Origin: a virus
Reading direction: 5' to 3' (one strand)
Virus record (IMG/VR): IMGVR_UViG_3300020450_000017
Span: 8,965 to 72,964 of that record
Length of the DNA: 64,000 bases
Below, piece by piece: positions 4,769-34,893 of this stretch (positions are counted from its first letter, which is position 1; the number at the start of each line of letters is the position of its first letter). The notes below the pieces were generated by a model that ran no database searches, had not been told where the DNA came from, and was given only the letters and a program-made list of their open reading frames with translations. A program made the position numbers and the translations under genes.

Positions 4769-6094
4769 ATGTACTACCTTATAGAAACGCAAGATCAATT
4801 AAAAAGATTTTTTAGTGATGAGGGTAGTGAATGCTACCTACAATTTATTACTAATAATGATAATGTACACCCTAAATTACAATCGTTAAGTGCCCTTTAT
4901 ATCTATTCGTTTAGTAAGGAGAAAGGATTTATTATTAATTTAAACCATCCTGAGGCATTTGAGCTTGAATTACCAATAAGTTATTTAAAATCTTATACAA
5001 ACATATTTGTAAAAGAAAAAATAAAAAGCTTACTATACATCCCTACACTTCCTTATACGGATATACAAAGTATATACTACTTACTAAAAAATGAACCACT
5101 AGAGGGATTACCTAAAACGGGCACTCACACGTTCTATGAGCGCAAATATGGCGCGAATAACGTGAATAAAATCATTCCACTTGCAAAACACTATGAGGCG
5201 TTGGAGGAGGAATTTAATGCGATTTACCCGTATATACTTAATTATAAGAGTGAGGAATCAAATAGGTGGTATAACGAAATATTAACTCCTACATTAGCAA
5301 AAATGGTAAGTGAGGGCTTTAAAACTAATAAGGAGTTTAAAAAACACTTTGACATAAATGAGAAATTTAGCATTAATGAAAATAAGATTTACGGATGGTA
5401 TAATTTTTGCACAACAACAGGACGCCCTACAAACAACTTTAATAGCGTTAATTTCTCAGCTTTAAAACACGATACAGGTGAGCGAGATGGCTTTGAAGCA
5501 GATAATGATTTACTAATTGAAATGGATTTTGAGGGTTACCACCCACGAATTATAGCGCGTTTATCAGGAGGTAAATTAGATAAAAGCGAATCAGTTCATA
5601 TACAAATGGCAAAAATGTATTTTGATACTGAAGAGGTAGATGCTAAAATGTATAAGCAAAGTAAGGAACTAACATTCCAACAAATGTATGGTGGGATAAA
5701 TCGTAAATATCTTAAATACGAATATTTTAATAAAGCACAACAATTTATAAACACATTATGGAGTGAGTTTAACACTAAAGGTTATGTTAAAACTGTAATT
5801 GCGAGACGCAAGCTTTTAAAAAGCAATTATAAAAACATGACACCTCAAAAACTATTTAATTATTATATCCAAGCATTTGAAACGGAGTATAATTTTACAA
5901 TGTTATCTAGATTATTTAAGTTACTTGAGGGTAAAAAAAGTAAGATAATCTTATATGTGTATGACTCTATACTAATAGATTTTGCGGTCGAAGATGGTAA
6001 AGAAACACTTCAATCAATTAGGTCAATAGTTTCGTCTGATTTTCCAATTAAAATTAAAAAAGGATATATATACTCTTCTTTGAAGGACATTTGA
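4769..6094 (+). CDS. Divergent family A DNA polymerase-like protein
   Basis: TTTGRP; motif A EMDFEGYHPRIIARL; motif B KELTFQQMYG; motif C VYDSIL; no recognisable exonuclease acidic motifs. Confidence 0.8.
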   Translation: MYYLIETQDQLKRFFSDEGSECYLQFITNNDNVHPKLQSLSALYIYSFSKEKGFIINLNHPEAFELELPISYLKSYTNIFVKEKIKSLLYIPTLPYTDIQSIYYLLKNEPLEGLPKTGTHTFYERKYGANNVNKIIPLAKHYEALEEEFNAIYPYILNYKSEESNRWYNEILTPTLAKMVSEGFKTNKEFKKHFDINEKFSINENKIYGWYNFCTTTGRPTNNFNSVNFSALKHDTGERDGFEADNDLLIEMDFEGYHPRIIARLSGGKLDKSESVHIQMAKMYFDTEEVDAKMYKQSKELTFQQMYGGINRKYLKYEYFNKAQQFINTLWSEFNTKGYVKTVIARRKLLKSNYKNMTPQKLFNYYIQAFETEYNFTMLSRLFKLLEGKKSKIILYVYDSILIDFAVEDGKETLQSIRSIVSSDFPIKIKKGYIYSSLKDI

Positions 6095-6127: not shown

Positions 6128-6517
6128 ATGAACAATAAACTTTATTGCACCTTTCTGCAAGATGAAGGGGTAAATGAAGTTGTAGAAAGAATTTTAGAGG
6201 AGCACGATATATTATTTAATAAGATTTTTGTTCTAGTTGCATTAGATGACAATAAAACAATGTTAACCTATAATATAGACGGACCAGTCTACAACCTACA
6301 ATTGCCAAATACAATTCTTGTACATAGGAAAAAACAAACTAATACATTATACACTATAAATGCTTTAAATGAAGTAATAAGATACTTAAATAATGGTGTT
6401 TTAGATACTACGTATCAGGTGGATTGGACACGGTTTCGAAATTGCTTATTATTAACACGTCCTGGTGGATTTAAAAAGGTAAAAACACGTTTAAAAACTA
6501 TAATTGAAGTAGAATGA
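6128..6517 (+). CDS. Hypothetical phage protein
   Basis: 129 aa ORF with VHRKKQTNTLYTINALNEVI, preceded by ATATTTAT. Confidence 0.7.
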   Translation: MNNKLYCTFLQDEGVNEVVERILEEHDILFNKIFVLVALDDNKTMLTYNIDGPVYNLQLPNTILVHRKKQTNTLYTINALNEVIRYLNNGVLDTTYQVDWTRFRNCLLLTRPGGFKKVKTRLKTIIEVE

Positions 6518-7068
6518 AACTAAAAAAATTACTCAACGAAGCTATAGATGATGCAGGGGTAAAAGAATGCCCTACAGCAACACAAGATTTACGTGTTAAT
6601 ACACTTAATCGTGATAGAGCTATTACTACACCCTTTATTATGTATGGTCCCTTAAATGTTGAGGAACCAGGTGATTATTGGGAAAAAATAGCTAAAAAAT
6701 GGGGAACTACAGAAAAAGCAGCATTTAAATCTAGATGTGCTAATTGTGTTGCCTTTGATATTTCTCCACGAATGTTAGATTGTATACCTGGTTCTGTTTC
6801 CGAACCTGTAGAAGAACCCGGGGCTCAAAAAGATATAGAAAAAGCTTTTTCTGATAGACCAGTAGTTGGTGAACTTGTTAAAAAGGGTGTATTAGGTTAC
6901 TGTTGGATGCACCAATTTAAATGCCACTCAGCACGTGCCTGTAATACATGGGCTGCAGGTGGTCCTATAAATAAAGACGAAAATTCGTATGATTGGCAAA
7001 GGCGTAATTTAAAGGCTGCACTAAATCCCGATCCTATACAATCTGAAGAAGAAGTATATGCTGAATAA
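6514..7068 (+). CDS. Cys-rich metal-binding protein with MKLKKLLNE leader
   Basis: CANC...GYC-x12-CNTW pattern. Confidence 0.65.
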   Translation: MKLKKLLNEAIDDAGVKECPTATQDLRVNTLNRDRAITTPFIMYGPLNVEEPGDYWEKIAKKWGTTEKAAFKSRCANCVAFDISPRMLDCIPGSVSEPVEEPGAQKDIEKAFSDRPVVGELVKKGVLGYCWMHQFKCHSARACNTWAAGGPINKDENSYDWQRRNLKAALNPDPIQSEEEVYAE

Positions 7069-7085
7069 TTTAAAGAAAAAAGGTT

Positions 7086-7964
7086 ATGTTATTATTAGAT
7101 ACGGTAGGCAATACTCCCCTACTAAAATTTGAGTTCCCAAATGGTACTCTATGGGGTAAAGCAGAGTTTTTAAACCCAGGAGGATCAGTAAAAGATAGAC
7201 CTGTAGCATGGATACTTAAAGAAGCTATTCGTACTAAAAAACTTAAACCTGGAGATACTATAGTTGAAGCTACCTCGGGTAATATGGGTATTTCATTAGC
7301 AATGTTTAGTGCTAATTTAGGTTTTAAATGTGTTATAGTAATGCCCTCTAATATGAGTAACGAACGTAAAGTTATGTTAAAATCATTTGGTGCTGAGTTA
7401 ATAGAGGTACCTGCTGGTGACTTTGATGCTGCTATCTTACTAAGAAATAAATTAGCCAAAGATAATGGTTGGTTTAATTTTAACCAATTCCATAACCCGC
7501 TCAATATAGAATCACATTGGTATACTACGGGAATGGAGATATGCAGAGATATTCCATTTGGCACTTGTGTAGATGCATTTGTTGCTGGAACAGGAACAGG
7601 AGGGACAATAATGGGTGCGGGTAAATTTATCCAAAACCAGTTTCCTATATGTAAATTAATAGCTTTAGAACCAGCCGAATCACCTGTTATGTCTGGTGGT
7701 GAGCCTGGTTTACATGGTATTCAGGGTATTGGTGATGGTAGTAAGTTTTTAGTTGATTTAAATGATATCAATCGTATTGAAATAGTACCTACTGAAGAAT
7801 CAGTTGAAAAATCTAAATCATTAGCTAAAGACTATGGCTTATTTGTAGGTTTTTCTGCAGCTGCTAATTTTTTAGTTGCAGAAAGGTTAATTGAAGAAGG
7901 GTATGCTAAAAATGTAGTTACTATCCTTTGTGATAGGGGAGAAAGATATTTTAGTTGTTTGTAA
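7086..7964 (+). CDS. cysK: Cysteine synthase (PLP-dependent)
   Basis: VGNTPL, NPGGSVKDR, EATSGNMG, GTGTGGT, HGIQGIG, CDRGERY. Confidence 0.92.
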   Translation: MLLLDTVGNTPLLKFEFPNGTLWGKAEFLNPGGSVKDRPVAWILKEAIRTKKLKPGDTIVEATSGNMGISLAMFSANLGFKCVIVMPSNMSNERKVMLKSFGAELIEVPAGDFDAAILLRNKLAKDNGWFNFNQFHNPLNIESHWYTTGMEICRDIPFGTCVDAFVAGTGTGGTIMGAGKFIQNQFPICKLIALEPAESPVMSGGEPGLHGIQGIGDGSKFLVDLNDINRIEIVPTEESVEKSKSLAKDYGLFVGFSAAANFLVAERLIEEGYAKNVVTILCDRGERYFSCL

Positions 7965-8029: not shown

Positions 8030-8782
8030 ATGAATCTAGATGAAATTAGAAAGCGCATGGACCGCTTGCAAAATAAGTCCAACGGCAAGTCAAAATCAGA
8101 CTATAAAGCCAACTTTTGGAAACCACCTAGCGGTGAGAAATCAGTTATTCGTATTGTGCCCTATAAGCACAATAAAGAAATACCATTTACTGAATTGTAT
8201 TTCTACTTCGGTATAGACAAACCTAGAATGATGTCACTCTCAAATTTTGATGAGTCTGACCCGATTTTGGAGTTTGCATCACAATTACGTAAGTCTAATG
8301 ACCCAGACAATATGGCATTAGCAAAGAAACTTTATCCTAAAATGCGTACGTTCGCACCTGTAATTGTTAGAGGTGAGGAAGATAAAGGTGTACGTTTTTG
8401 GGAATTTGGTAAGATGGTTTACCAAGAACTCCTTGGAGTTATGATGGATGAAGATTATGGTGACATTACTGACATTGCTCAGGGACGGGATGTTACCGTA
8501 GAAGTTATTCCGGCAGCAGAAACTGGTAAAATGTACGACACAACTACTGTTCGTGTTAAGCCAGTTCAGACCCCACTTTCAGATAGTGCCGAAACAGTTG
8601 AATCATTCCTTGAAAACCAAAAGAATGTTATTGATTTATTCAATAAGTACTCATTTGATGAAATGAAGGAATCACTTCAAAAGTACTTAGCACCAAGTGA
8701 AGAACAGGAAACGGTAGAGGCAACGTCACCTGTAAAAGAAAAAGTTGACCTCGATTCTAAAATAGACGATTTATTCGGTTAA
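8030..8782 (+). CDS. Single-stranded DNA-binding protein (T4 gp32-like)
   Basis: FWKP..VIRIVP, GVRFWEFGK, DITD..GRD, acidic C-terminus DSKIDDLF. Confidence 0.8.
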   Translation: MNLDEIRKRMDRLQNKSNGKSKSDYKANFWKPPSGEKSVIRIVPYKHNKEIPFTELYFYFGIDKPRMMSLSNFDESDPILEFASQLRKSNDPDNMALAKKLYPKMRTFAPVIVRGEEDKGVRFWEFGKMVYQELLGVMMDEDYGDITDIAQGRDVTVEVIPAAETGKMYDTTTVRVKPVQTPLSDSAETVESFLENQKNVIDLFNKYSFDEMKESLQKYLAPSEEQETVEATSPVKEKVDLDSKIDDLFG

Positions 8783-8783
8783 T

Positions 8784-9929
8784 ATGGCTAAAAAATCCAA
8801 CAATAAAGCCCTGGATGGGGGAAGTCTTACTGACGAACTAGCAATTTCGCTAAATAAAAAGTTCAGTAAAGAATATAATAAAGTTGCTTACTTCCTCAAC
8901 GGCGGGGATGAATCACCAACAGATGTTACATCTTGGGTATCTACTGGATGTACACCACTCGACTTGGCGATCTCTAACAGACCAAATGGGGGTTTGCCTG
9001 TTAGTAAAATTGTTGAGATTACGGGCCTAGAGCAAAGCGGTAAATCCCTCCTAGCAGCTCACGTAATTGCTTCTACACAAAAGCAAGACGGTGTGGCAAT
9101 ATACATTGATACTGAATCAGCACTAGATGCACAGTTCTTAACCGCCATAGGAGTTGATGTTGATAAAATGCTTTACATCCCACTTGATACAATTGAGGAT
9201 GTTTTTGAAGCAATGGAAGACATCATCGTAAAAATTCGCGAAAAGAACAAAGATAAACTAGTGACTATTGTAGTAGACTCTGTAGCCGCCGCAACCACGA
9301 AAATTGAGTCTGCAGCCGACTACGACAAAGATGGTTATGCTACTGCTAAAGCAATCATCATGTCTAAATCAATGCGCAAAATTACTAATTTAATAGGTAA
9401 GCAAAAGATCCTGTGTGTATTTACTAATCAGTTACGTCAAAAACTAAACGCGATGCCGTTTGGAGATCAATATACAACATCAGGAGGTAAAGCGCTCCAA
9501 TTCCACGCTTCAGTTCGCTTGCGACTCAAAGGAGTAGGCAAGATTAAAGAGAAAGTTAATGGTGTGGATGAAGTAGTTGGACAGGAAGTTGAATGCGTGG
9601 TTGTTAAAAACCGCCTAGGCCCACCTAACCGAAAAGTTCGTTATAACGTCTTTTACGATTCCGGGATTGATGACATTTATGGTACCTTAAAGTTGCTTAA
9701 AGAATACAAAATTGTTAAGCAAGGGGGAGCATGGTATAAATACACCACAGCAGATGGAGAAACCCATCAGTTCTTAGCTAAAGAATTTGGAGATTTATTA
9801 GAAAGCCACCCCACAGCTAAAGAAGAATTGTATGAAGCCCTTTGTGAGAAATACATTATGAAGTATCGTCACGAAAAGGAGGATGGTCTAGATCGTGACC
9901 CCGAAGAAACCATAACTGAGAATGAGTAA
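8784..9929 (+). CDS. uvsX: RecA/UvsX recombinase
   Basis: GLEQSGKS Walker A, YIDTESALD, VVDSVAA, TSGGKALQFHASVRL, KNRL. Confidence 0.93.
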   Translation: MAKKSNNKALDGGSLTDELAISLNKKFSKEYNKVAYFLNGGDESPTDVTSWVSTGCTPLDLAISNRPNGGLPVSKIVEITGLEQSGKSLLAAHVIASTQKQDGVAIYIDTESALDAQFLTAIGVDVDKMLYIPLDTIEDVFEAMEDIIVKIREKNKDKLVTIVVDSVAAATTKIESAADYDKDGYATAKAIIMSKSMRKITNLIGKQKILCVFTNQLRQKLNAMPFGDQYTTSGGKALQFHASVRLRLKGVGKIKEKVNGVDEVVGQEVECVVVKNRLGPPNRKVRYNVFYDSGIDDIYGTLKLLKEYKIVKQGGAWYKYTTADGETHQFLAKEFGDLLESHPTAKEELYEALCEKYIMKYRHEKEDGLDRDPEETITENE

Positions 9930-10941
9930 TTTCGAAGATATCTTAAACAATATATCCCGTGAAGAGAAGCACCCTAATGACAGGGTGCTTCTTATTGACG
10001 GACTAAACATATTTCTAAGAGCATTTGCTGTAAATGGTGCACTAAATGAAAAAGGTGTTCCTGTAGGTGGTATTATGGGTTTTATGAAATCCCTTGCACT
10101 TGCCATTAGACAAATGGAACCAACTAGGGTAATTGTTGTTTATGATGGTGCCGGGGGTAGTAAAAGACGAAGAAAAATCAACCCAGACTATAAATCAAAC
10201 AGAACCCCTAAGCGTGTAACTAAATTTGATGCTTTTAACTCATTGCAAGATGAGAAGGAAGCAATGAAGATTCAATTTAGAAGACTACTCAGTTACCTTG
10301 AGTTACTTCCAATTGATGTTTACAGCGTGGACAATGTTGAAGCGGACGATGTAATTGCGTATATCGCGCAAAATGTGCTAGGAAACGAAGCAATCATTAT
10401 GTCCGCTGACCAGGATTTTTTACAATTAGTAAACGATCGAATTGTAGTTTGGTCACCAAATAAGAAAAAATACTACACAAAAGAGCAAATATTTACTGAA
10501 TATGGAATACCAGCCCATAATTTTTTAATGTATAAATGTTTAATGGGTGATAAATCAGATAACCTTGAAGGTATTAAAGGTTTAGGCCCTAAAAAAATGG
10601 CTAAGGTACTTCCAGATATTACTGGAAAAGAGGTTAATTTAGATTATCTTATACGTTATTCTTCAACACAAGATAGTTTAATGCATAAACGAATTATTGA
10701 AAATAGAGTAACGTTGGAAACAAACGAAAAGATGATGTCACTTAAAGACCCAATTATGTCAGGTCAAATAAAAATTCAAATAAGTGATTTAGCTTCTCGT
10801 CCAACAAATTTGCTCCACCGAAATGATTTTATTATGTTATATAATGAAGATTATATGGGAAATAACTTACAGAATCCTGATATATGGTTAAATGAACATT
10901 TTCTTAAACTAAATAATCTTGCAAAATTAACACATGAGTAA
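9922..10941 (+). CDS. rnh: 5'-3' exonuclease / T4 RNase H-like flap nuclease
   Basis: LLIDGLN, YKSNR, EADDVIA, SADQDFLQL, GDKSDNLEGIKGLGPK. Confidence 0.9.
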   Translation: MSNFEDILNNISREEKHPNDRVLLIDGLNIFLRAFAVNGALNEKGVPVGGIMGFMKSLALAIRQMEPTRVIVVYDGAGGSKRRRKINPDYKSNRTPKRVTKFDAFNSLQDEKEAMKIQFRRLLSYLELLPIDVYSVDNVEADDVIAYIAQNVLGNEAIIMSADQDFLQLVNDRIVVWSPNKKKYYTKEQIFTEYGIPAHNFLMYKCLMGDKSDNLEGIKGLGPKKMAKVLPDITGKEVNLDYLIRYSSTQDSLMHKRIIENRVTLETNEKMMSLKDPIMSGQIKIQISDLASRPTNLLHRNDFIMLYNEDYMGNNLQNPDIWLNEHFLKLNNLAKLTHE

Positions 10942-12277
10942 GTTAGAACAGTACGGCCACAATTTCCAGGTTAAAGTACTATCTACACTTGTTAAAGATA
11001 GAGAATTTATCCAACAAGTAGCAGATATTGTATCTCCTGATTTTTTTGATAATGAAGCTAATAAGTGGATTGTAAGCAAAACCTTAGAATACTTTAATGA
11101 ATTTAGAACTACCCCTACAATGGAGGTATTTAAAGTTGAAGTAGAAAAGATCCGTAATGAAATTCAACAAGTTGCTGTAAAAGAACAACTTAAAGAAACA
11201 TTTAAATCTACTAAATCACAGGATCTTGATTTTGTTAAACAAACATTTCTTGATTTTTGCAGGAACCAAACACTTAAATCCGCCCTTCTTTCCTCAGTTG
11301 ATCTACTTGAAATAGGAAATTATGAAGATATCCGTAGACTTATTGATAATGCACTTAAAGCAGGTGTAGAAAAAAATCTTGGTCACGATTATATGGATGA
11401 AATTGAAGCCCGTTACCAAGAAGAAGCCCGAAACACAATTGAAACCCCATGGAATGAGATTAATAGTTTATTAAGTGGTGGTTTAGGTACAGGTGATTTA
11501 GGTTTACTTGTAGGTAATCCTGGTGGAGGTAAATCGTGGGCACTTGTTGCTTTAGGTGGACATGCCGTTAAACTTGGTTATACAGTTTTACATTATACAC
11601 TTGAACTTTCTGACATGTATGTTGGTCAGAGATATGATGCTTTCTTTACAGAAATACCAGTTAATGAGATTAAAATCCATAAAACAACTGTTAAAGAAGA
11701 ACTAGGAAATATGAGAGGAAAATTGTATATTAAACAATATCCTGCGGGTAAAGCCAACGTAAATACGATATTAGCGCATGTAGATAAATGTCGCGGCCAA
11801 GGCATTGAGCCTGATCTTATTGTATTAGATTACGCGGATCTTTTATATACCAGGAATGGAAAAGAAAAACGAGATAAATTGGATGACATTTATACTTCAT
11901 TAAGAGGATTAGCTACTGAATTAAAAATCCCTATTTGGACAGCATCACAAAGTAATAGATCAGCAGCTCGAGATAATATTATACAAGGTGACCAAATTGC
12001 AGAAAGTTATTCAAAAATTATGATTTCAGATTTTGCTCTCTCATTATCAAGAAAAACCGAGGATAAAGAAAATGGTACTGGAAGATTCCATGTTATGAAA
12101 AATAGATATGGAGCGGATGGCTTAACATTTAATGCACTTATGGATACATCTATAGGAAAAATTGATTTTACTAACCGTATAAATAATGAAGAAACCAGCA
12201 GTCCTGATGGAGCAGGTTTTACAGGAAATGAAAGAAGAAATCTCCAAAGGGCTGCTGAAAATATTTTTAACTTTTAA
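10934..12277 (+). CDS. dnaB: Replicative DNA helicase (DnaB/gp41-like)
   Basis: GNPGGGKS, YTLEL, VLDYADLL, WTASQSNR, KNRYG. Confidence 0.92.
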   Translation: MSKLEQYGHNFQVKVLSTLVKDREFIQQVADIVSPDFFDNEANKWIVSKTLEYFNEFRTTPTMEVFKVEVEKIRNEIQQVAVKEQLKETFKSTKSQDLDFVKQTFLDFCRNQTLKSALLSSVDLLEIGNYEDIRRLIDNALKAGVEKNLGHDYMDEIEARYQEEARNTIETPWNEINSLLSGGLGTGDLGLLVGNPGGGKSWALVALGGHAVKLGYTVLHYTLELSDMYVGQRYDAFFTEIPVNEIKIHKTTVKEELGNMRGKLYIKQYPAGKANVNTILAHVDKCRGQGIEPDLIVLDYADLLYTRNGKEKRDKLDDIYTSLRGLATELKIPIWTASQSNRSAARDNIIQGDQIAESYSKIMISDFALSLSRKTEDKENGTGRFHVMKNRYGADGLTFNALMDTSIGKIDFTNRINNEETSSPDGAGFTGNERRNLQRAAENIFNF

Positions 12278-15696: not shown

Positions 15697-16161
15697 ATGG
15701 GAAAATTTCAATCAACAAAATTATTTGACGGATTTAGCTGTGTGTTTCGTCAATGGAAAGCAGAAAATACACACTGTAGATTTATGCATGGCTATGGAGT
15801 CAGCTTTAGAGTTTGGTTTGAGGGTAGTTTAGATGGCCGAAATTGGGTATGGGATTTCGGTGGTATGAAACGTGCTCAAACTAAAATTGATGGTATGAGT
15901 CCTAAAGCATGGATGGATTATATGTTTGATCATACTATACTCGTTGCTAAAGACGATCCTATGATAAATCTTATTAATGATTTAGAACATAACCAAATTG
16001 CTCAGGTAAGAGTAGTCGAAGCAACCGGAGCAGAAAAATTTGCTGAATTTATATTTGGTAAATTAAATACATTTGTACAAACAGAAACTAACGGTAGAGT
16101 TAGAGTAGCTAAAGTAGAATTTATGGAACATGGGAAGAACACAGCAATCTACGAAGGTTAA
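15697..16161 (+). CDS. queD: 6-carboxytetrahydropterin synthase
   Basis: HCRFMHGY, WVWDFG, FDHT, GAEKFA. Confidence 0.88.
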   Translation: MGKFQSTKLFDGFSCVFRQWKAENTHCRFMHGYGVSFRVWFEGSLDGRNWVWDFGGMKRAQTKIDGMSPKAWMDYMFDHTILVAKDDPMINLINDLEHNQIAQVRVVEATGAEKFAEFIFGKLNTFVQTETNGRVRVAKVEFMEHGKNTAIYEG

Positions 16162-16942
16162 AGTATCCCATGAGGTACCTCTACAATTATTAGAGGAAAG
16201 TAAACAATTTAATGATTATGATTATTGTTTACCCCATCTTTTAGACCAATATAAAGTATATAAAGATTATTTCTACCAAGCTAAAAAGGAAGGTAGATAT
16301 ATAATTATGGATAACTCACTCCATGAATTAGGTAAAGCATATGATACATCACGTTTGTTATATTGGATTTCTGAACTAGAACCAGACGAATTTATTGTCC
16401 CTGATGTTTGGGAAAACGGCCATTACAGTGTAAGAAATGCTAAAACATGGTCTACAATTGAAATGCCCGATAACACTACTAAAGTAGCTGTAGTGCAAGG
16501 TAAATCATATTCAGATTTTGTTAATGGCTACCAATCATATAAGTGGTTTGGTTATCAAAAAATAGCCTTTAGTTATGGTGCCTCTTGGTTTGAAGAATGT
16601 TTTAAACACCCAAACTTATACGTAGCTAAAATGATGGGCCGTTTAAAAACTATTACTAATTTATATAAGGGGGGACTTATCAGTGATACTGATAGAGTTC
16701 ATCTTTTAGGTTGCAATTTACCTCAAGAATATCTTTATTATAAAGATTTTAAATTTATAGAGTCTATAGATACTTCAAATCCTATCATACATGGTTTAGA
16801 AGGAATTAGGTATTCAGAGGGGGGCTTATTACAGAAAAGTAAACAAAAAATCGATAAAGACTTTACTCAAAAAGTCACACCTAAACAAAAAGAAAACATT
16901 CTATATAATATAGAAATGTTTAGAAAAATAAACAATTTATGA
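16130..16942 (+). CDS. dpdA: TGT-fold DNA guanine transglycosylase-like (DpdA-like)
   Basis: IIMDNS, IVPDV, AVVQG, VHLLG and SIDTSNP align with TGT barrel motifs; lies between queD and queC. Confidence 0.65.
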   Translation: MGRTQQSTKVKVSHEVPLQLLEESKQFNDYDYCLPHLLDQYKVYKDYFYQAKKEGRYIIMDNSLHELGKAYDTSRLLYWISELEPDEFIVPDVWENGHYSVRNAKTWSTIEMPDNTTKVAVVQGKSYSDFVNGYQSYKWFGYQKIAFSYGASWFEECFKHPNLYVAKMMGRLKTITNLYKGGLISDTDRVHLLGCNLPQEYLYYKDFKFIESIDTSNPIIHGLEGIRYSEGGLLQKSKQKIDKDFTQKVTPKQKENILYNIEMFRKINNL

Positions 16943-17409
16943 ATTTAGTCTTAATTACTATTACAATATGTGCATTAGCATTTACTTATTATGTATGGAG
17001 ATTCCATGACCAATTAGCTGAAAGAAAAGCAGAAGCCCAATTAGCAAAATGGAAACTTAAAGAAGAAAAAGCAATTAGAGAAGATGCTTATCAGCGCTCT
17101 AGAGCAGTTAGTTTTGGAAAAACAATAGAACATTATGTTCCATTTATGGAAAATTTTCCAATAAATCCTAACGATATAAGATTTTTTGGCAACCCAATTG
17201 ATTATATAGCTTTTACAGATATGGGATCTAAAAAGAAATGTGCCGTACATTTTTTAGAAGTTAAAAGTGGAGAAAGTCAACTAAACGGTAGGCAAAGAAA
17301 TATTAAAGATGCTATTCAAAAAGGTAGAGTATATTGGCATGAATATAATGCTAAGGGTATTTGGGAACATGAGACTAAGGACGAACATTTAAATAAAGAA
17401 ATAAAATGA
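16939..17409 (+). CDS. Membrane-anchored PD-(D/E)XK nuclease (archaeal Holliday junction resolvase-like)
   Basis: N-terminal TM helix; RSRAVSFGKTIEH, RFFGNPIDYIAF, FLEVKSG. Confidence 0.75.
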   Translation: MNLVLITITICALAFTYYVWRFHDQLAERKAEAQLAKWKLKEEKAIREDAYQRSRAVSFGKTIEHYVPFMENFPINPNDIRFFGNPIDYIAFTDMGSKKKCAVHFLEVKSGESQLNGRQRNIKDAIQKGRVYWHEYNAKGIWEHETKDEHLNKEIK

Positions 17410-18212
17410 AAAAACAAGCAGTATTGTCACTAAGTGGAGGTATGGACAGCTCCACAGTGTTGCTTCATCTACTCGCCAATGGCTATGAAGTGACAGCACT
17501 GTCTTTCGATTATGGGCAGAAACACAGAGTAGAACTCGAACGAGCCCAACAATTAGTCAATTATATTAACTTAAACAGGCTTACAGAACCTAATGTTAAA
17601 TATGGAGTAATTAAACTTGATGGTTTAGCTCCTATGCTTAATAGTGCTCTTGTAGAAGGTGGAGATGAAGTACCTGAAGGACACTATGAACAAGAAAACA
17701 TGAAAGAAACTGTTGTTCCTAACCGTAATAAAATATTTTCATCATTAATCCAGGCTGTTGCCCTATCTATCGCAAATGAAAAACAAACAGAAGTCCATAT
17801 CGCAATGGGTATTCACGCAGGTGATCACGCTATTTACCCTGACTGTAGACAAGAATTCAGGGATGCTGACTATAAGGCTTTCACCGAAGGTAACTGGGAC
17901 GCTGATCGCGTTAGCTATATTACCCCTTATCTTAATGGGGATAAATACGATATTTTGGTTGATGGGGCCGAGTGCTGCGAGCGATTGGGGTTACAATTTG
18001 ACGACGTTTATGCACTCACAAATACTTCTTATAAGCCCATTAATATTAATGGGACTTGGTACAGTGATTATAAATCAGCTTCATCGGTGGAAAGGGTTGA
18101 AGCCTTTCTTAAGATGGGAAAACCTGATCCAGTCGCATACGCTGATGAATCAGGACCTGTCAATTGGAATGTTGTACAAAAGCATGTTGAACAAGTATTA
18201 AATAATGCGTAA
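17406..18212 (+). CDS. queC: 7-cyano-7-deazaguanine synthase
   Basis: SGGMDS, FDYGQKH, TVVPNRN, YPDCR. Confidence 0.93.
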   Translation: MKKQAVLSLSGGMDSSTVLLHLLANGYEVTALSFDYGQKHRVELERAQQLVNYINLNRLTEPNVKYGVIKLDGLAPMLNSALVEGGDEVPEGHYEQENMKETVVPNRNKIFSSLIQAVALSIANEKQTEVHIAMGIHAGDHAIYPDCRQEFRDADYKAFTEGNWDADRVSYITPYLNGDKYDILVDGAECCERLGLQFDDVYALTNTSYKPININGTWYSDYKSASSVERVEAFLKMGKPDPVAYADESGPVNWNVVQKHVEQVLNNA

Positions 18213-18978
18213 AAGAATAGAAGATTATAATAAGGTACTACCAATAGTAGAAATATATCGTTGTGTGCAAAGTGAGGGATCTCGTTTTGGGCGCCCTACT
18301 ATTGCCGTTAGAACAACAGGTTGTACTCACCGCTGTTGGTTTGGTGAAGGGGGTTGGTGTGATAGTTGGTATACAAGTATTCACCCAGATAAAGGTACTT
18401 TTACTTTTAATGATATAATCGCTATTTATGACGAGAACCCTCAAGTAAAGGAAATGATGCTTACGGGGGGTTCGCCTTCAATGCATTTTGCCTTAGTAAA
18501 TGAAATTACACACTTTGCCAAAGAAAGAGGAATCCTCGTTACAATTGAAACCGAGGGATCCCATTTTCTCGAGACTGATTATCCGATTAATCTCATTTCT
18601 CTTAGCCCTAAGTTTTCTAATTCTGTGCCTAGGGTGGGTATTACTACTCCCGGTGGTAAAATTGTTGATGAAAGGTTTGTCAAAATTCATAATAGGCATA
18701 GATTACATTATGAAAACATTAGGAAAACTTTAGATTATCATGAAGATTACCATTTTAAACCCGTTTGGGATGGTACAGATGAAAATTTAAAAGAAATAGA
18801 GGAATTTAGAGTTAAAATGGAAATTCCTAAGAATAAAACATTTGTAATGCCCGCAGGTGATACTCGTGAAACATTAGTTGAAATGTATCCTAAAGTATTT
18901 GAAATGGTAGCAGAACATGGTTATAATATGACGGGAAGAGATCATATTATAGCATACAACACAGAAAGGGGGGTTTAA
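18205..18978 (+). CDS. queE: 7-carboxy-7-deazaguanine synthase (radical SAM)
   Basis: VQSEG, RTTGCTHRC..WCDS, LTGG, IETEG, SLSPK. Confidence 0.9.
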   Translation: MRKRIEDYNKVLPIVEIYRCVQSEGSRFGRPTIAVRTTGCTHRCWFGEGGWCDSWYTSIHPDKGTFTFNDIIAIYDENPQVKEMMLTGGSPSMHFALVNEITHFAKERGILVTIETEGSHFLETDYPINLISLSPKFSNSVPRVGITTPGGKIVDERFVKIHNRHRLHYENIRKTLDYHEDYHFKPVWDGTDENLKEIEEFRVKMEIPKNKTFVMPAGDTRETLVEMYPKVFEMVAEHGYNMTGRDHIIAYNTERGV

Positions 18979-19121
18979 TGAAGGAACAAGCACTTGAGAT
19001 TTTAGAAGAAATAAGAGATAATGTTACTATATGCTGTGCTGTAACTATGGAACCTGATGAGGTAGAAGAATTAATAGATAAGTTAAAAAAAGTTATAGAA
19101 GAAGAATGGAACAAGCAATAA
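18978..19121 (+). CDS. Small hypothetical protein (47 aa, not in ORF track)
   Basis: MKEQALEILEEIRDNVTICCAVTMEPDEVEELIDKLKK...; fills the queE-hpt gap with TAATG coupling. Confidence 0.6.
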   Translation: MKEQALEILEEIRDNVTICCAVTMEPDEVEELIDKLKKVIEEEWNKQ

Positions 19122-19618
19122 GTGAAAAAGATTTAGATATTAAAATTAAAATCTTAGCTAAACAAATAAATGATGAACATAGAGGTGATCCTACTCCTAT
19201 TGTAATGGTGTGTATATTAAATGGGGGATTTATGTTTTTTAGTGATTTAGTAAAAGAAATAGAGATTCCTGTTGAAATAGATTTTATTCGTTGTAAATCT
19301 TATTTTGGTAGAAAACAAGGTGATTTAGTTGTGTCAAAAGATCTAGAAACTAAAATTAAAGGTAAACATGTTTATTTAGTAGATGATATTTTAGATTCTG
19401 GAAATACTATGGTAGCTGTTAAAAAATTTCTATCTGTTAAAGAACCTAAATCAATAACTCCAGTAGTAGCAATTTATAAAGAAAGTGTGGATTTTGATAG
19501 GGTTCTTCATATATTATATCAAGATGTAGATTCTATATTTGATCCTTGGTATATAGGATATGGTATGGATGATGATAAGGGACATAATAGAAATTTAAAA
19601 ACAATTTATACTATATAA
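19106..19618 (+). CDS. hpt: Hypoxanthine/guanine phosphoribosyltransferase
   Basis: VCILNGGFMFFSDL, KSY loop, VYLVDDILDSGNTM PRPP motif, IGYGMD. Confidence 0.88.
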   Translation: MEQAISEKDLDIKIKILAKQINDEHRGDPTPIVMVCILNGGFMFFSDLVKEIEIPVEIDFIRCKSYFGRKQGDLVVSKDLETKIKGKHVYLVDDILDSGNTMVAVKKFLSVKEPKSITPVVAIYKESVDFDRVLHILYQDVDSIFDPWYIGYGMDDDKGHNRNLKTIYTI

Positions 19619-20313
19619 TGGAGAATAAGAGAAGAAAAGTACACGAAGAATTAGAAGTAGTACAAACAGGTTTTGCAAACGGTGTTGCTGAAGGTTTTCC
19701 ACTCCAACAATCAGAAAAAGATAAGATGATTGATGAAGCCGAAGTAGCATATGGTAAATTTTTAGATGCTTTAAAATGTGATTGGAGAAACGATCCCAAC
19801 TCAATGGAAACTCCAAGACGTGTTGCTAAAGCTTATGTAAATGATTTATGGGCGGGACGTTATACAGCTATGTCGCCTATAACTTCTTTTCCAAGTGATG
19901 GTTATGATGGAGTTATTATAGAAAGAAACATACCCCTTACATCTATGTGTTCCCACCACCACCAAACAATTGGGGGTGTAGTCCATATTGGGTATATTGC
20001 GGGGACAGAAGGGCAAGTAATTGGTTTATCTAAATTAAATCGTATTGTAGAATTATTTGGCCGTAGGGGGGCAATTCAAGAACAACTAACCTCTGCAATT
20101 CATAATGCTGTAGATAAGATTACTGAAGGTAATAAAGGTGTTATTGTTACAATTGTAGGTACTCACAATTGTGTTAGTTGTAGAGGTGTTAAACACCAAG
20201 GTGCAGCAATGGTTACTACCAAAGCATCAGGCGCATTTAGAGATGATACAAATCAAGCACGTAAAGAGTTCTTCGACAGCTTGAAAATTAATAATGGAGG
20301 ACACAATATTTAA
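19618..20313 (+). CDS. folE: GTP cyclohydrolase I
   Basis: ETPRRVAK, SMCSHH, IGLSKLNR, IQEQLT, HNCVSCRG. Confidence 0.95.
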   Translation: MENKRRKVHEELEVVQTGFANGVAEGFPLQQSEKDKMIDEAEVAYGKFLDALKCDWRNDPNSMETPRRVAKAYVNDLWAGRYTAMSPITSFPSDGYDGVIIERNIPLTSMCSHHHQTIGGVVHIGYIAGTEGQVIGLSKLNRIVELFGRRGAIQEQLTSAIHNAVDKITEGNKGVIVTIVGTHNCVSCRGVKHQGAAMVTTKASGAFRDDTNQARKEFFDSLKINNGGHNI

Positions 20314-20318
20314 AAGTT

Positions 20319-20468
20319 ATGTTAGAGTTTTTATACCACGCACTCGGAATTTGTGGTGAGCACGATCACCCACACTTAATTAACCTTGGCTTTTTAGCAG
20401 CTGGGGTATACGCAATCATTAAAATATCAAATAATTATGGCATATTGGCTAGCAAAAGTAAAGGTTGA
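20319..20468 (+). CDS. Small membrane peptide with GICGEHDHPH motif (49 aa, not in track)
   Basis: MLEFLYHALGICGEHDHPHLINLGFLAAGVYAIIKI...; fills the gap after folE. Confidence 0.55.
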   Translation: MLEFLYHALGICGEHDHPHLINLGFLAAGVYAIIKISNNYGILASKSKG

Positions 20469-20637
20469 AGAGGAAACCTCCCGTGGCGCTATGAGATGGA
20501 CCACTGAACAATTCCTTGTTAATGCAGAAAATGCAACAGACGCAGAAGTTAAATTAACTGAAGAATATTCATCATACCCACATGATTGGCATGTTGATCA
20601 GTTAAAGCAAATTAAACTAGTAAAAGTTATTGAGTGA
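20437..20637 (+). CDS. DUF4494-like protein
   Basis: YWLAKVKVEE...TEQFLVNAENATDAEVK resembles this Bacteroidota family. Confidence 0.6.
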   Translation: MAYWLAKVKVEEETSRGAMRWTTEQFLVNAENATDAEVKLTEEYSSYPHDWHVDQLKQIKLVKVIE

Positions 20638-21128
20638 TGAATAAAGTACCATTTGTAGATGAAGTGGAGGAATTTAATTTGTTAATGAATAAACCTAACA
20701 ATTATGAGCCCACAATACCAGAAAAAAAGGAATGGGAGTTTGTATACAACTTCGTCCTGGAAGAACTTGAGGAATATAGAGAAGCATGTGAACGAGGTGA
20801 CATCGTTGAGATTTTGGACGCTTTGTGCGACATTGCTTATGTCTCATTGGGGAATGGAACTATGTTACATGGCCTTAAGGATAAAATTTGGCCCGCTTAT
20901 CAAGAAGTACAAGCCTCTAACCTATCTAAGGCTTGCAAAACTGAAGATGAAGCACGAGAAACGGTTAAAAAGAGATCCGAAGAACAAGGTGAGCCCTGCC
21001 ACTATGAAATGGTCGGTGATAAGTATATTGTATACCGTACGCGTGACAGAAAAGTTATGAAAAATATTAATTATTTTAGACCAGACTTAAAACAGTTTTT
21101 TAATGAAAATGAATTAAAAAATGTCTGA
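20634..21128 (+). CDS. MazG-like nucleoside triphosphate pyrophosphohydrolase
   Basis: EELEEY..VEILDALCDIAYV, EVQASNLSK, DRKVMKNINYFRPDL. Confidence 0.85.
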   Translation: MMNKVPFVDEVEEFNLLMNKPNNYEPTIPEKKEWEFVYNFVLEELEEYREACERGDIVEILDALCDIAYVSLGNGTMLHGLKDKIWPAYQEVQASNLSKACKTEDEARETVKKRSEEQGEPCHYEMVGDKYIVYRTRDRKVMKNINYFRPDLKQFFNENELKNV

Positions 21129-21375: not shown

Positions 21376-21623
21376 AAAAGTTTTTATATTTTAGTGCCCC
21401 CTGGTGTGGGCCTTGTGAACAATTAAGTCCTGTTATGGATGAACTTCATGCAGAAGGAATGACAGTCCAAAAAATTGATGTAGATTCTAACCCTGAAATT
21501 GTCCAATCATTTAATATTAGAAACGTTCCTACTGTAATTTTACAAGTAGATAACGTAGAAAAGGGAAGGAAAATTGGCCTTGCGTCAAAATCTATGTATA
21601 TTGACCTATATAATCAAGGTTAA
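21372..21623 (+). CDS. trxA: Thioredoxin
   Basis: FSAPWCGPC, IDVD, NVPT. Confidence 0.92.
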   Translation: MKKFLYFSAPWCGPCEQLSPVMDELHAEGMTVQKIDVDSNPEIVQSFNIRNVPTVILQVDNVEKGRKIGLASKSMYIDLYNQG

Positions 21624-23338
21624 TGTATAAAAATTGTTATGTTCAAAGAGGTGAAGAATGGAATCATTATAGAATCCATTTATGGACTGATGAGGGATAC
21701 TCTATAGAAGATTACCAAAATTATGGTTATTTAGAATGTACAGATAGTGCTGCTACTCATATTGGCCTTAAAGGAGAAAATCTTAAGAGGGTATTTAATT
21801 GGGAAAGAAATGACCCTCGTATGCACTATTCTGATCATACTAGGGGAAATATTCACACTAAATTTCTTATAGACAAATATGGTGATGATGATACTCCCTC
21901 GGTAACTCATAGAGAAGTATTTTTTGATATTGAGATTGAGATAGGAGGTGCTCTTACCCCTGAATATATCAAAAAAGCCCCTAAACCAGTTACTTCAATT
22001 GCCCTTTGGGATAAACAATTAGATGATTGGAAAATCATTATCCTAGATAAGGATAATAATATTGAACATACAGTTGATAAACAGGGGAGAGAAGTAATCC
22101 CTGTTAAGAGAGAATCTGATTTACTAGAAAAATTTCTTAACACATTAGAAGAGATAGAACCAGATATCCTTATAGGATATAATAGTGATTATTTCGACAT
22201 TCCTTATCTTTACTATAGAATTAAAAATACATTAGGAGATAGATATGCTAATAGAATGTCTCCTATTAAAATAGTAGAAGAACAAACATGGAATGAAGAT
22301 GTACCTATCAGAATAGCCGGAGTTACTTCTCTTGATTATATGCGCTTACATAAAAAGTATAGTTTTAAAGATGAACCATCTTTTAAATTAGATGCTTTAG
22401 GTGAAAAATATGTTGGTCAAAAGAAGATTGAATATGAAGGTTCACTTGATAGGTTATTTGCAGAGGATAAAGAAAAATTTATTGAATATAACTTTGTTGA
22501 TGTTTTAATACTTAAAAAACTAGACGAAAAATTTCAATATATTGATCTAACTAAAAACCTTGCCCATAAAGGAAAAGTGTTATATGAAGAAGTGTATTTA
22601 TCTTCTAAAATTCAGGATGGTGCTATTTCAAGTTGGTTATTATCTGAAAATATTATTCCACCTAATAAGGACTTAGACCCACTTACTAAGAAAAATTATG
22701 CAGGTGGTTATTTATTTTGCCCTAAAACAGGTATTTACAATTATATGTTTGATGAAGACCTTACATCACTATACCCTTCTATTATCATGTCTTTAAATAT
22801 AGGCAAGGAAACTTATGTAGGTAGAGTATTAGATTTATTTGATGATAGGAATAATAGATTAGGTTTAAACGACTTAGAAAAAATGGTCAACGAAGACCCC
22901 GAAAAAGAGATGCCTGTTGAAAATCTTCAACGTAAACAAAATTATATGAAGGTTAAAGATGTTATAGATACTATCAAAAAGAATAATCTATCTGTAACAG
23001 CTAATGGTGTTATGTTTAGAACAGATAAACCATCTACTCTAAATGTTATTCTGGATAAATGGTTTGATGAAAGGGTAATGTATAAGAAAGCTATGAAAAA
23101 AGCTTATAAAAATGGTAATAAAAAAGAAGGTGAATTAAATCATCTTAAGCAATATACTATGAAAATTTTGCTTAACTCACTTTATGGTGCTACCGCTTTA
23201 CCATCATTTAGGTATGGTAGTGTTATTTTATCTGAAGGCATCACACTTACAGGACAACGTATCATTCAAGAATCGGCTTTATTTGCAAATACACATATGA
23301 ATAAGGTATTACGAGGAGAATTAAAATTAGAATTATGA
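21623..23338 (+). CDS. Family B DNA polymerase, N-terminal part (exonuclease plus regions II/III)
   Basis: FFDIEI, GYNSDYFDIPYL, YNFVDV, DLTSLYPSII, KILLNSLYG; lacks YxDTDS. Confidence 0.92.
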   Translation: MYKNCYVQRGEEWNHYRIHLWTDEGYSIEDYQNYGYLECTDSAATHIGLKGENLKRVFNWERNDPRMHYSDHTRGNIHTKFLIDKYGDDDTPSVTHREVFFDIEIEIGGALTPEYIKKAPKPVTSIALWDKQLDDWKIIILDKDNNIEHTVDKQGREVIPVKRESDLLEKFLNTLEEIEPDILIGYNSDYFDIPYLYYRIKNTLGDRYANRMSPIKIVEEQTWNEDVPIRIAGVTSLDYMRLHKKYSFKDEPSFKLDALGEKYVGQKKIEYEGSLDRLFAEDKEKFIEYNFVDVLILKKLDEKFQYIDLTKNLAHKGKVLYEEVYLSSKIQDGAISSWLLSENIIPPNKDLDPLTKKNYAGGYLFCPKTGIYNYMFDEDLTSLYPSIIMSLNIGKETYVGRVLDLFDDRNNRLGLNDLEKMVNEDPEKEMPVENLQRKQNYMKVKDVIDTIKKNNLSVTANGVMFRTDKPSTLNVILDKWFDERVMYKKAMKKAYKNGNKKEGELNHLKQYTMKILLNSLYGATALPSFRYGSVILSEGITLTGQRIIQESALFANTHMNKVLRGELKLEL

Positions 23339-24255
23339 AAGAAGAAATACCATGGTGGATCTGTAATGAGGAAGATAAAAACTTCTGCACATATGTGGAT
23401 ACAGATTCTAATTATTTTCATGCTGAACCACTTTTGAAGCACTTATATCCTAATTTTTCAGAATTACCTGCTGAAGAACAGGACGATTTACTTGAAAAAA
23501 TGGCTTTAAAATACCAAGATTTAATTACAGAATATTATGATACTTTAGCTAGGGAAGCATTTAATATAGATAAACACCGTTTAGAAATGAAAACGGAGTG
23601 CACTATTCGTTCTGGTTTTTTCTCAGGTAAAAGAAGATATGCACAATATATTACTAAAAAAGAAGGTATTAAAGTAGAAGATATAGATGTTAAAGGTCTT
23701 GATTTTATGAAATCAAATTTCCCTCCCCTATTTAAAAAATTCTTTAATGGTATTTTAGATAAAATCCTATTTGGTGCTACTAGAAATGAAATCGATCAGG
23801 AAATTTTAGAGTTTAAAAATAGTTTAGATACATTACCTCTAGAGTTACTAGGTAAGCCAACAGGAGTAAAGGATATTAAAAAGTATATTGAACGTCCCCC
23901 GGGTGCTGGAAATATATTTACTACCCTTAAAACCGGGGCCCCTGTAAATGTTAAAGCAGCAGTTAGATATAACGATTTCCTTAAATTTAAGGGTTTAGAT
24001 AAAAAACACTCTCAAATAGTTGCTGGTGATAAAATCAAATGGGTTTATTTAAAAGATAATCCTTATAAAATTGATACTATGGGTTTCTTAGATTTTGATT
24101 TTCCAGAAGAAATTCGTACATTTGTAGAGCAATATATTGATAGAGATAAAGCATTTGATTCTATACTTAAAAATAAGCTAGAATCATTTTATAAAGACTT
24201 AAGTTGGGGTAGTTTAACCCTTAATACACATGTAAACAATTTTTTCTCATTCTAA
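23335..24255 (+). CDS. Family B DNA polymerase, C-terminal part (region I plus thumb)
   Basis: YVDTDS, KRRYA, VKGL, GDKIKWVYL. Confidence 0.9.
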   Translation: MKEEIPWWICNEEDKNFCTYVDTDSNYFHAEPLLKHLYPNFSELPAEEQDDLLEKMALKYQDLITEYYDTLAREAFNIDKHRLEMKTECTIRSGFFSGKRRYAQYITKKEGIKVEDIDVKGLDFMKSNFPPLFKKFFNGILDKILFGATRNEIDQEILEFKNSLDTLPLELLGKPTGVKDIKKYIERPPGAGNIFTTLKTGAPVNVKAAVRYNDFLKFKGLDKKHSQIVAGDKIKWVYLKDNPYKIDTMGFLDFDFPEEIRTFVEQYIDRDKAFDSILKNKLESFYKDLSWGSLTLNTHVNNFFSF

Positions 24256-24983
24256 TGACAGATAAAAGAATAATAGATAGTTTTATAGGCAAATACCACT
24301 TAGGGGGCAATATAGAACGAACTAAATGGGTTTCAGATGGTGAATCCCTTAAAGCTGATTTTATAAACGATTCACAAAATTTAGTAGGTAAAGTAGTATC
24401 TAAAAAATTTAAATTTCCAATAGGGGAATTTGGCATTTACAGTACTTCTACTTTAAGTAAAATGTTAGGAATCCTCGAAAACGAGGTTATGTTTGACATA
24501 ATAAAAGAGGGAGGAACACCTGCTAGGTTTAATATAGGTGATACTGCTATGGATATTAAGTTTAATTTAGCAGACCCACAAGTTATTCCTAATGTTCCTT
24601 CCATTAATAAAACAGAAGGTAATATTTATGTGGAATTAACTGAAGAATTTACTACACGTTTTATTAAATCTAAAGACGCAGTAGGCGAAGAAGTGTTTTA
24701 TGTTTCTACCCAAGACGGATTTACTTCACCTGAAGTAAAACTTACTATAGGAAATAGTACGTCTAATTCAGTATCATTTGCCGCCCATATAGAACCTGGT
24801 AGTGCTGAAGTAGAATTAGATAATATACCTTTTAATGCAGATTTAGTTAAAGAAATATTCAAACATAATAAACGCTTTGAATTAGGTTGGATGGATATAA
24901 ATCCAAAAGGATTAATGTCTTTTGCATTTAAATTTGGAGACCTAGAAAGTAATTATTATCTTGTAAGAAATCAAAATCAATAA
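24255..24983 (+). CDS. Sliding clamp (gp45-like)
   Basis: Size, position after the polymerase, EFGIYS..LSKML, C-terminal SNYYLV. Confidence 0.7.
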   Translation: MTDKRIIDSFIGKYHLGGNIERTKWVSDGESLKADFINDSQNLVGKVVSKKFKFPIGEFGIYSTSTLSKMLGILENEVMFDIIKEGGTPARFNIGDTAMDIKFNLADPQVIPNVPSINKTEGNIYVELTEEFTTRFIKSKDAVGEEVFYVSTQDGFTSPEVKLTIGNSTSNSVSFAAHIEPGSAEVELDNIPFNADLVKEIFKHNKRFELGWMDINPKGLMSFAFKFGDLESNYYLVRNQNQ

Positions 24984-25283: not shown

Positions 25284-25286
25284 TAA

Positions 25287-26902
<1,616 letters not shown>

Positions 26903-26903
<1 letters not shown>

Positions 26904-34889: not shown

Positions 34890-34893
34890 TACA

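Follow-up and report, generated by a model that had tools for sequence, protein, structure and literature searches.

The 64,000-nucleotide (nt) stretch analysed here, hereafter the window (positions 8,965 to 72,964 of IMG/VR virus record IMGVR_UViG_3300020450_000017), is part of a large AT-rich phage genome with a guanine-plus-cytosine (GC) content of about 0.25-0.43; the record spans 72,964 bases and is estimated to be 42% complete. An open reading frame (ORF) at 4769..6094 on the plus strand encodes a protein of 441 amino acids (aa), the length given in an earlier note, made from the sequence alone, that had read the product as a specialised second polymerase with a changed steric gate. The ORF list, Pfam, a structural model and homology together identify the product as a family A DNA polymerase of the divPolA1 type. 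The gene lies between tail/baseplate genes and a replication block, and 33 nt past its stop codon starts an unnamed gene (6128..6517, plus strand) for a 129-aa protein, p129, with the motif NTILVHRKKQTNTLYTINALN.

The Pfam family DNA_pol_A (PF00476) matched aa 202-423 at 48.6 bits against a curated cut-off of 34.3 (E 7e-13), and the palm and fingers begin at about aa 202. Among PDB sequences, phmmer matched 18 distinct ones, Taq Pol I variants only (best E 7e-7). An AlphaFold (AF2) model, built with a 15-sequence alignment as input, had a predicted local distance difference test score (pLDDT) of 91.6 and a predicted template modelling score (pTM) of 0.89. Its residues 1-439 superposed on residues 300-876 of the Bst Pol I large fragment (Z 26.6, root mean square deviation 3.4 A, 412 residues aligned), a range that, in this whole-chain fold comparison, takes in the exonuclease-like domain of Bst; Klenow and KlenTaq were the next structural matches (Z 24.6-25.3). 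DNA polymerases filled the best 50 matches both in Foldseek and in the VIA fold comparison, and no RNA polymerase was among either set. The 441-aa chain is wholly covered by the Pol I large-fragment fold and is about 140 residues shorter than the matched Bst chains of 580 aa.

Identity to gene 1 of phage immuto was 33.1% over residues 1-430 (98% of the length; tblastn E 3e-66), the matched gene being annotated 'DNA polymerase family A' at positions 1-1326 of MW353176.1. The immuto protein is the named example of divPolA1 in the study of Yutin et al. ('DNA polymerase swapping in Caudoviricetes bacteriophages', Virol J 2024, PMC11348598; preprint 10.1101/2024.04.26.591309). The accessible text of that study describes divPolA1 in 14 phages of 155-190 kb, with the palm kept, the thumb truncated and all three exonuclease catalytic Asp replaced, and concludes that polymerase activity is probably kept. 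It also places a regular PolA, PolB or PolC elsewhere in these phages and conserved replication genes downstream of divPolA1. The 441-aa protein is thus a member of a published family and a miniaturised Pol I large fragment.

The active site and its conservation

Motif A (D253-F-E-G-Y-H258-P-R260; 5525..5548, plus strand) keeps the catalytic Asp and carries a His at the position of the Pol I steric gate residue, E710. Motif B, in the O-helix (Y295-K-Q-S-K299-E-L-T-F303-Q-Q-M-Y307-G308; 5651..5692, plus strand), has Tyr for R754 and keeps the Lys, the Phe and Tyr-Gly, and motif C (Y396-V-Y398-D399-S400-I-L-I-D404; 5954..5980, plus strand) reads YDS in place of HDE. The alignment to Taq paired DYSQIELR with DFEGYHPR, RRAAKTINFGVLYG with YKQSKELTFQQMYG and QVHDEL with YVYDSI (Taq first in each pair). 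The same pairs were obtained when the family alignment was compared by hhalign with the E. coli Klenow fragment from NC_000913.3 (probability 93.6%), which equated Pol I D705 with D253, E710 with H258, R754 with Y295, K758 with K299, F762 with F303, Y766-G767 with Y307-G308, Q849 with Q368 and H881-D882-E883 with Y398-D399-S400. The gate residue was located by these two sequence/profile alignments, the fold comparisons being resolved as ranges and not residue by residue. In the window DNA, D253 is encoded by GAT at 5525-5527 and H258 by CAC at 5540-5542. The minor-groove/primer-terminus residues R668 (R219 here) and Q849 (Q368 here) are kept; the Pol I-type gate Glu, R754 and the HDE triad are absent across the family, which has H258, Y295 and Y398-D399-S400 instead. 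By residue numbers, 45-46 residues separate D253 from K299 and about 61 separate Y307 from Q368, where Klenow has 53 and 83; the fingers and, apparently, the thumb are trimmed relative to Pol I.

Both alignments agreed with the earlier note at every position that it had named: the Asp of motifs A and C and the K/F/YG of motif B as retained, and His at E710, Tyr at R754 and YDS at HDE as replacements. That reading was accurate and goes further than the accessible divPolA1 text, which nowhere uses the words steric, E710, histidine or ribonucleotide (running text of the journal and preprint versions, as distinct from figures and supplements) and mentions primase in other contexts only. Among the papers listed in a literature search on the steric gate and histidine in family A phage polymerases, none dealt with the divPolA1 family.

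A profile search over 1.84 billion representatives (50%-identity representatives) retrieved 1900 family proteins at E<=1e-3 and 664 at E<=1e-30. Residues were tallied in the window protein and the 150 best of the 1900 representatives (n=151), that is, in the closest members; the lengths of the 150 are mostly 410-470 aa (range 351-471). D253, K299, R219, Q368 and D399 occur in 151/151, H258 in 148/151 (Q in 2, F in 1), F303 in 145/151, Y307 in 147/151 and Y398 in 149/151. Position 400 is Ser in 117, Ala in 33, Gly in 1 and Glu in none of the 151. Y295 is found in 107/151, with Ile in 17 and Arg in 9. Three residues without a Pol I counterpart are the family's own, namely E371 (151/151), Y365 and D404 (149/151 each). 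The conservation of the His in homologs, which the earlier note had named as a check, extends beyond these closest members, since the most distant phage relatives read (immuto, LR756508 and Mel-JY01; 33%, 31% and 26% identical to the window polymerase) have the same His, Lys/Phe/Tyr and Y-D-A motifs in 3/3 cases. At least 200 IMG/VR stretches carry the family, and there are Tara Oceans matches too, so that divPolA1 is far commoner than the 14 phages in print. The window polymerase belongs to a marine lineage and is 26-47% identical to the named phage members.

Structures and mutagenesis of Klenow, Bst and Taq place E710, R754, H881 and E883 around the sugar and triphosphate of the incoming nucleotide. 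The conservation of H258, Y398 and S/A400 (150/151 for the last) argues for selection on a working pocket, and since four pocket residues changed together and were then held fixed, the pocket appears to have been remodelled and not to have decayed. With the metal Asp, the general-acid Lys, the O-helix aromatics and the primer-terminus contacts invariant or nearly so, an active, 3'-extending enzyme is the simplest reading. A catalytically dead replisome scaffold would account for the loss of R754, H881, E883 and E710, all important in Pol I; however, both metal Asp, K299, R219 and Q368 at 151/151 would be hard to explain without catalysis, and we consider such a scaffold extremely improbable.

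The earlier note had proposed that the His gate alters sugar selectivity, allowing ribonucleotide addition and RNA or mixed primers. The Pol I residue that excludes ribonucleoside triphosphates (rNTPs) is replaced in 148/151 members, and E883 has become Ser or Ala, Ser being found there in T7-type RNA polymerases. However, a His is as bulky as a Glu and can still act as a steric block, and F303 and Y307 (F762 and Y766 in Pol I) are kept. Moreover, a chain of 441 aa is too short to include the promoter-binding N-terminal domain that single-subunit RNA polymerases have, and the best 50 Foldseek and best 50 VIA matches, outside of which other families may lie, are all DNA polymerases. We consider a change in sugar choice quite improbable.

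No exonuclease family of Pfam was matched by the polymerase at E<=1, and its N-terminal 200 aa have no sequence similarity to Klenow detectable by hhalign, in line with the earlier note, to which exonuclease acidic residues were not evident. In the model, the exonuclease-like domain is present but inactivated, surviving only as a scaffold, as judged from a fold match by range and not from residue-by-residue mapping of the Asp. Within this domain, H34 (144/151), H60 (146/151), E or D at 62 (149/151) and D98 (138/151), encoded within 4868..5062 on the plus strand, are nearly invariant. This set is conserved as strongly as the polymerase site, and may bind a metal, form an interface or provide a new activity.

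At the thumb position, the model has helices at 138-157 and 163-181 with a 5-residue turn between them, in a range-level comparison only. Before motif A, the window protein lacks 2+1 residues that Taq has, and a 4-residue helix is modelled at 238-241. The spacing from R239 to D253 is 14 in 83/151 members, including the window protein (3 shorter than Taq), and is 16-17, Taq-like, in 64/151, so that the shortening is not a family trait.

p129 and the replication block

Of 80 polymerase-seeded IMG/VR loci (the best 80 of 200), 75 have the gene for p129 directly downstream of the polymerase gene, and the remaining 5 break off no more than 121 nt from the polymerase gene. Conversely, among p129-seeded loci (the best 80 of at least 600 matches), divPolA1 is upstream on the same strand in 66/66 of those with at least 1400 nt of room, at a distance of 33-98 nt in 63 and 1.8-2.1 kb in 3; the end of the polymerase gene is visible in 12 of the remaining 14, shorter loci. 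These two sets partly overlap and are kin, and are not a random sample. The p129 gene also adjoins the polymerase 3' end in immuto and Mel-JY01, and lies about 1.5 kb downstream in LR756508. Variable inserts sit after p129 and rarely before it. Thus, p129 is linked to divPolA1 wherever the sequence allows it to show.

The small protein is more conserved than the polymerase: 49% versus 33% identity to immuto, 39% versus 26% to Mel-JY01 and 52-57% versus 38-47% in marine clades. It accounts for at least 8000 unnamed clusters (90% identity) in metagenomes. Pfam gave no match, even at E<=10, for the p129 of the window or for two marine homologues, and p129 had no PHROG match, no PDB sequence match at E<=10 with a profile and no usable Atlas hit. 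The AF2 model was poor (pLDDT 60.6, with residues 69-116 under 50); compared with 48,161 chains in VIA, its residues 1-70 matched ferredoxin-like/ACT/RRM folds at best (Z 6.3), which is below noise level. A motif resemblance had suggested a T4 RegA- or UvsY-like factor, but family, PHROG, PDB and fold searches gave no support for this. Prediction of a divPolA1-p129 complex scored 0.00 in both runs, which had no controls and speak neither for nor against binding. We also found 14 longer p129-containing proteins, two of which (P0393 and P0397) join the divPolA1 C-terminal part to p129, another joining p129 to gp32 and one containing FEN and polymerase fragments. These four fused forms are single-sequence clusters, maybe read-through due to sequencing errors, and were set aside as evidence of linkage. 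This obligate neighbour of divPolA1 is a candidate factor in the replication or recombination of large aquatic phages.

Downstream of p129 (6514..7964, plus strand) lie a 184-aa Cys-rich ORF and a gene for a pyridoxal phosphate (PLP)-dependent CysK-like enzyme, a variable insert outside the conserved unit. Its presence between p129 and the next gene in some relatives only marks this site as an insertion hot spot. Then follow, on the plus strand and identified by Pfam, genes for a gp32-like protein of the kind that binds single-stranded DNA (SSB; 8030-8782), a RecA/UvsX-like recombinase (8784-9929), a 5'-3' exonuclease/flap endonuclease (FEN; 9922-10941) and a DnaB/gp41-like helicase (10934-12277). 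A ribonucleotide reductase is also encoded downstream of the replication genes. The order polymerase-p129-SSB-RecA-FEN-helicase is the same in the window, immuto, Mel-JY01, LR756508 and the IMG/VR loci, down to 26-33% identity. On the other side, directly upstream of the polymerase gene, are two unnamed ORFs of 1164 and 292 aa, preceded by tail sheath, tube and baseplate genes; contig bases 1-8964, outside the window, hold tail sheath, tube and baseplate genes only.

The regular polymerase of this phage is of family B and is split into two plus-strand ORFs recognised by Pfam, at 21623-23338 (571 aa) and 23335-24255 (306 aa), with a 4-nt overlap; the best phage match of the first part is the Mel-JY01 PolB (36.7%). 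The large, AAA+ subunit of the clamp loader is encoded at 26903-27793 and the small subunit (Phage_clamp_A) at 28105-28539, both on the plus strand and both by Pfam. The earlier note had listed a PolB with clamp and loader. PolB and the loader were found; the putative clamp, the 242-aa ORF after PolB (24255-24983), has no Pfam or PHROG match. This ORF is conserved in Mel-JY01 and LR756508 only. Family scans also identified GroES and GroEL (24987-26903) and an Hsp20-type small heat-shock protein (53444-53878); according to the accessible divPolA1 text, chaperonins adjoin the regular polymerase in all divPolA1 phages (PMC11348598).

These neighbourhoods bear on whether divPolA1 is itself the main replicase, with the swappable regular polymerase in another role. 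Its conserved replicative context and the exchange of the regular polymerase among families A, B and C, as given in the accessible text (PMC11348598), would fit such a role. However, the enzyme lacks proofreading and its thumb appears trimmed, even though the genomes are of 155-190 kb according to the same text, and PolB here stands with clamp-loader genes in a T4-like arrangement. We regard this role as very improbable. Since divPolA1 heads the SSB-RecA-FEN-helicase block, stands beside a separate PolB with a clamp loader, does not proofread and has trimmed fingers and an apparently trimmed thumb, an accessory role is indicated.

Further into the window, about 17 kb of sugar-nucleotide/glycosyltransferase genes extend over 31030-47818, where the GC content falls to 0.25-0.29 (at 38-46 kb). 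They encode GT1, GT2 and GT29-like transferases, a CMP-sugar cytidylyltransferase, a uridine-kinase/aldolase fusion, an HpcH-type aldolase, a PIG-L-like deacetylase, WbqC and an NAD-dependent epimerase, and may act on DNA, the virion or the host surface. At 58000-64000 the GC content rises to 0.37-0.43, and this part, which includes a gene for a DUF932 protein (57966-58856), may be a different module or a mobile insert. A 272-aa P-loop ORF in it (61209-62027) has DnaB-like and primase/helicase PHROG matches only around the P-loop.

Primase and 7-deazaguanine genes

Toprim_2 was not matched in the 72,964-base contig, and no primase family was found among the 77 ORFs scanned (window and contig). 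This agrees with the earlier note, which had seen no primase in the window; however, at 42% completeness the absence is uninformative. In immuto, a gene annotated as DnaG primase (phrog_47, E 5e-42) lies about 104 kb away from gene 1, and Mel-JY01 has its orthologue (38% identical; phrog_47, E 3e-29). Two primase-seeded IMG/VR records, of 173,415 bases (rated 100% complete) and 120,008 bases (74% complete), also contain divPolA1; in a third, 82% complete, no divPolA1 was found. Thus, a DnaG/T4 gp61-type primase and divPolA1 occur together in four genomes. Toprim_2 was found in 0/5 long fragments of relatives (29-59% complete), which, given the 104-kb distance in immuto, is likewise uninformative. 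Because four genomes have both, divPolA1 is no stand-in for a missing primase, and the primer-making role suggested in the earlier note is, as a substitute for one, weakened. It may have a second, specialised priming role beside the DnaG-type primase.

Such a role is specified in a reading of divPolA1 and p129 as a PolA-type primase-polymerase like CCPol-MP, in which p129 would hold the single-stranded template and the polymerase would start chains de novo, serving origin-independent restart or repriming beside the DnaG-type primase. In the accessible texts on that precedent, CCPol is a family A polymerase whose exonuclease domain is truncated and which primes only together with the small protein MP, whose gene adjoins those of CCPol and a helicase (PMC7581432, PMC10201439, PMC10061031). 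The position of p129 next to the polymerase (75/80 loci) and always after it (66/66), its better conservation than the polymerase, the helicase encoded within the block and the impaired N-terminal domain are all consistent with this reading. So is the shortening of the stretch before motif A, by 3 residues relative to Taq in 83/151, a change that the accessible text of Rice ties to initiation; however, its length is Pol I-like in 64/151. CCPol, according to its accessible text, keeps E710, which places the His gate outside that precedent, and no OB fold was seen in p129 (albeit in the poor model, at noise level, Z<=6.3). Moreover, four divPolA1 genomes have an ordinary DnaG-type primase, so that conventional priming is available to them, and with the whole block syntenic, adjacency is weak evidence. 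Taken together, we think a primase-polymerase of this kind unlikely.

A broader version would have divPolA1 and p129 as a two-gene unit, in which a Pol I derivative with a His gate and no exonuclease would start or elongate chains with non-standard nucleotides (ribo- or mixed primers) or prime DNA de novo. We hold this, too, to be unlikely. If true, it would be a second, independent invention of a PolA-based priming/restart enzyme, abundant in large marine phages beside the DnaG-type primase.

The window also has a 7-deazaguanine gene set at 15697-21128, which encodes QueD, a DpdA3-like transglycosylase, a Holliday-junction-resolvase-like nuclease, QueC, a radical-SAM QueE-like enzyme, a phosphoribosyltransferase, GTP cyclohydrolase I (FolE) and a MazG-like pyrophosphohydrolase. 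The product of the DpdA3-like ORF (16130-16939) is 40% identical to the annotated DNA guanine transglycosylase of immuto and 36-37% identical to proteins of the Campylobacter CP220 group. A QueF-like gene was not noticed among the genes of this set in general family scans. The pairing of a phosphoribosyltransferase with MazG might point to a nucleotide-level branch. DpdA proteins put 7-deazaguanines into DNA, and in immuto DNA all G is replaced, DpdA3 being named as the inserting enzyme, as given in the accessible text of bioRxiv 10.1101/2023.04.13.536721.

The earlier note had also suggested that the polymerase handles modified dG nucleotides. As an adaptation to 7-deazaguanine DNA, it would copy a fully modified template or insert modified dG, as DpoZ does for 2-aminoadenine. 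QueC occurs in 7/10 divPolA1 records examined (the window, immuto, G001, G002, G003, G005 and G006), the window has FolE, QueD and QueE together with the DpdA3-like, phosphoribosyltransferase and MazG-like genes, and the immuto DNA is fully modified. However, QueC is absent from full-length Mel-JY01 (190 kb) and LR756508 (484 kb), both of which keep divPolA1 and p129, as well as from G008 (74% complete). Its absence from two full-length records means that the link is lineage-wide and not obligatory, and because the QueC-positive records are related to one another, their number exaggerates the association. In addition, the DpdA3-like transglycosylase points to insertion after synthesis, and the changed residues would, judging from Pol I structures, face the sugar and phosphates and not the base edge with position 7. 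The suggestion is weakened by the insertion enzyme and the two records, and we consider an adaptation of this kind quite improbable.

Proposed role and comparison with known systems

On balance, we favour, at slightly better than even confidence, an accessory DNA polymerase that belongs to the replication/recombination module, lacks exonuclease activity and has a remodelled nucleotide pocket. The enzyme would be active, follow a template and elongate a 3' end but not proofread, catalysis and primer dependence being presumed from its conserved residues. In its pocket, E710 would have been replaced by His, R754 mostly by Tyr, H881 by Tyr and E883 by Ser or Ala. It may carry out accessory short-patch DNA synthesis, extending D-loops in recombination-dependent replication or, alternatively, filling Okazaki fragments or gaps with the separately encoded FEN. 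Of the earlier view of a specialised second polymerase, the enzyme beside PolB machinery stood; the three functions proposed for it gained no support, and two were weakened.

Several points weigh against an accessory DNA polymerase of this kind. R754, H881 and E883 contribute to catalysis by Pol I, as Klenow mutagenesis established, and with all three lost, the enzyme could use another substrate or chemistry in place of ordinary addition of deoxynucleoside triphosphates (dNTPs). The recombination or gap-filling role is suggested by the gene neighbourhood only. The apparently short thumb, dead exonuclease domain and tightly linked small gene also recall the CCPol-MP primase. We found no biochemistry for any divPolA1 member, the papers listed under that name being one study, as preprint and journal article, and literature searches returned nothing on Mel-JY01 and nothing relevant on a second exonuclease-deficient family A polymerase in T4-like phages. 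Finally, the accessible text of that study places the regular polymerases in less obviously replicative neighbourhoods than divPolA1 (PMC11348598), a contrast that leaves room for divPolA1 to be more central than 'accessory'.

The divPolA1 family itself is already published; its size and the linkage to p129 are new here. An almost invariant His in place of the sugar-selecting Glu, with three pocket changes in step, amounts to a natural experiment on substrate choice by Pol I, and the divPolA1 pocket could interest enzyme engineers. A cultured system exists in the immuto phages on Flavobacterium sp. LMO8.

Among known systems, the Pol I large fragment (Klenow, Bst BF, KlenTaq) matches the fold of the whole chain (Z 24.6-26.6) and shares the motif Asp, K/F/YG, R668 and Q849 with the window protein, which differs in its His, Tyr and YDS/YDA changes, and in the extra invariant E371 and nearly invariant D404. 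The exonuclease domain of Bst BF is also inactive. The divPolA2 of barbaviruses is likewise a second divergent PolA beside a regular PolB; however, unlike the window protein, it is described in the accessible text as having no homologous thumb, a novel N-terminal domain, a variable neighbourhood and an RNA polymerase-like character (PMC11348598).

CCPol-MP, from Bacillota mobile elements (staphylococcal SCC), shares with the window genes a family A polymerase, a crippled N-terminal domain, a small downstream gene and a helicase in the block. CCPol keeps both E710 and F762 according to the accessible text (PMC7581432), whereas the window protein has a His at E710. The CCPol exonuclease domain is truncated, whereas divPolA1 keeps a complete exonuclease-like domain, and MP is an OB-fold SSB, a fold that p129 does not show at the quality available. 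The divPolA1 locus is further set apart by a gp32-type SSB encoded separately and by the DnaG-type primase found in relatives. The likeness is drawn at the level of domains and gene arrangement. Set against divPolA1, with immuto gene 1 as type, the window protein shows no difference that excludes it from the family: the two are alike in their length of about 440 aa, kept palm, apparently short thumb and dead exonuclease domain, as well as in the separate regular polymerase, here PolB, and the replication genes downstream.

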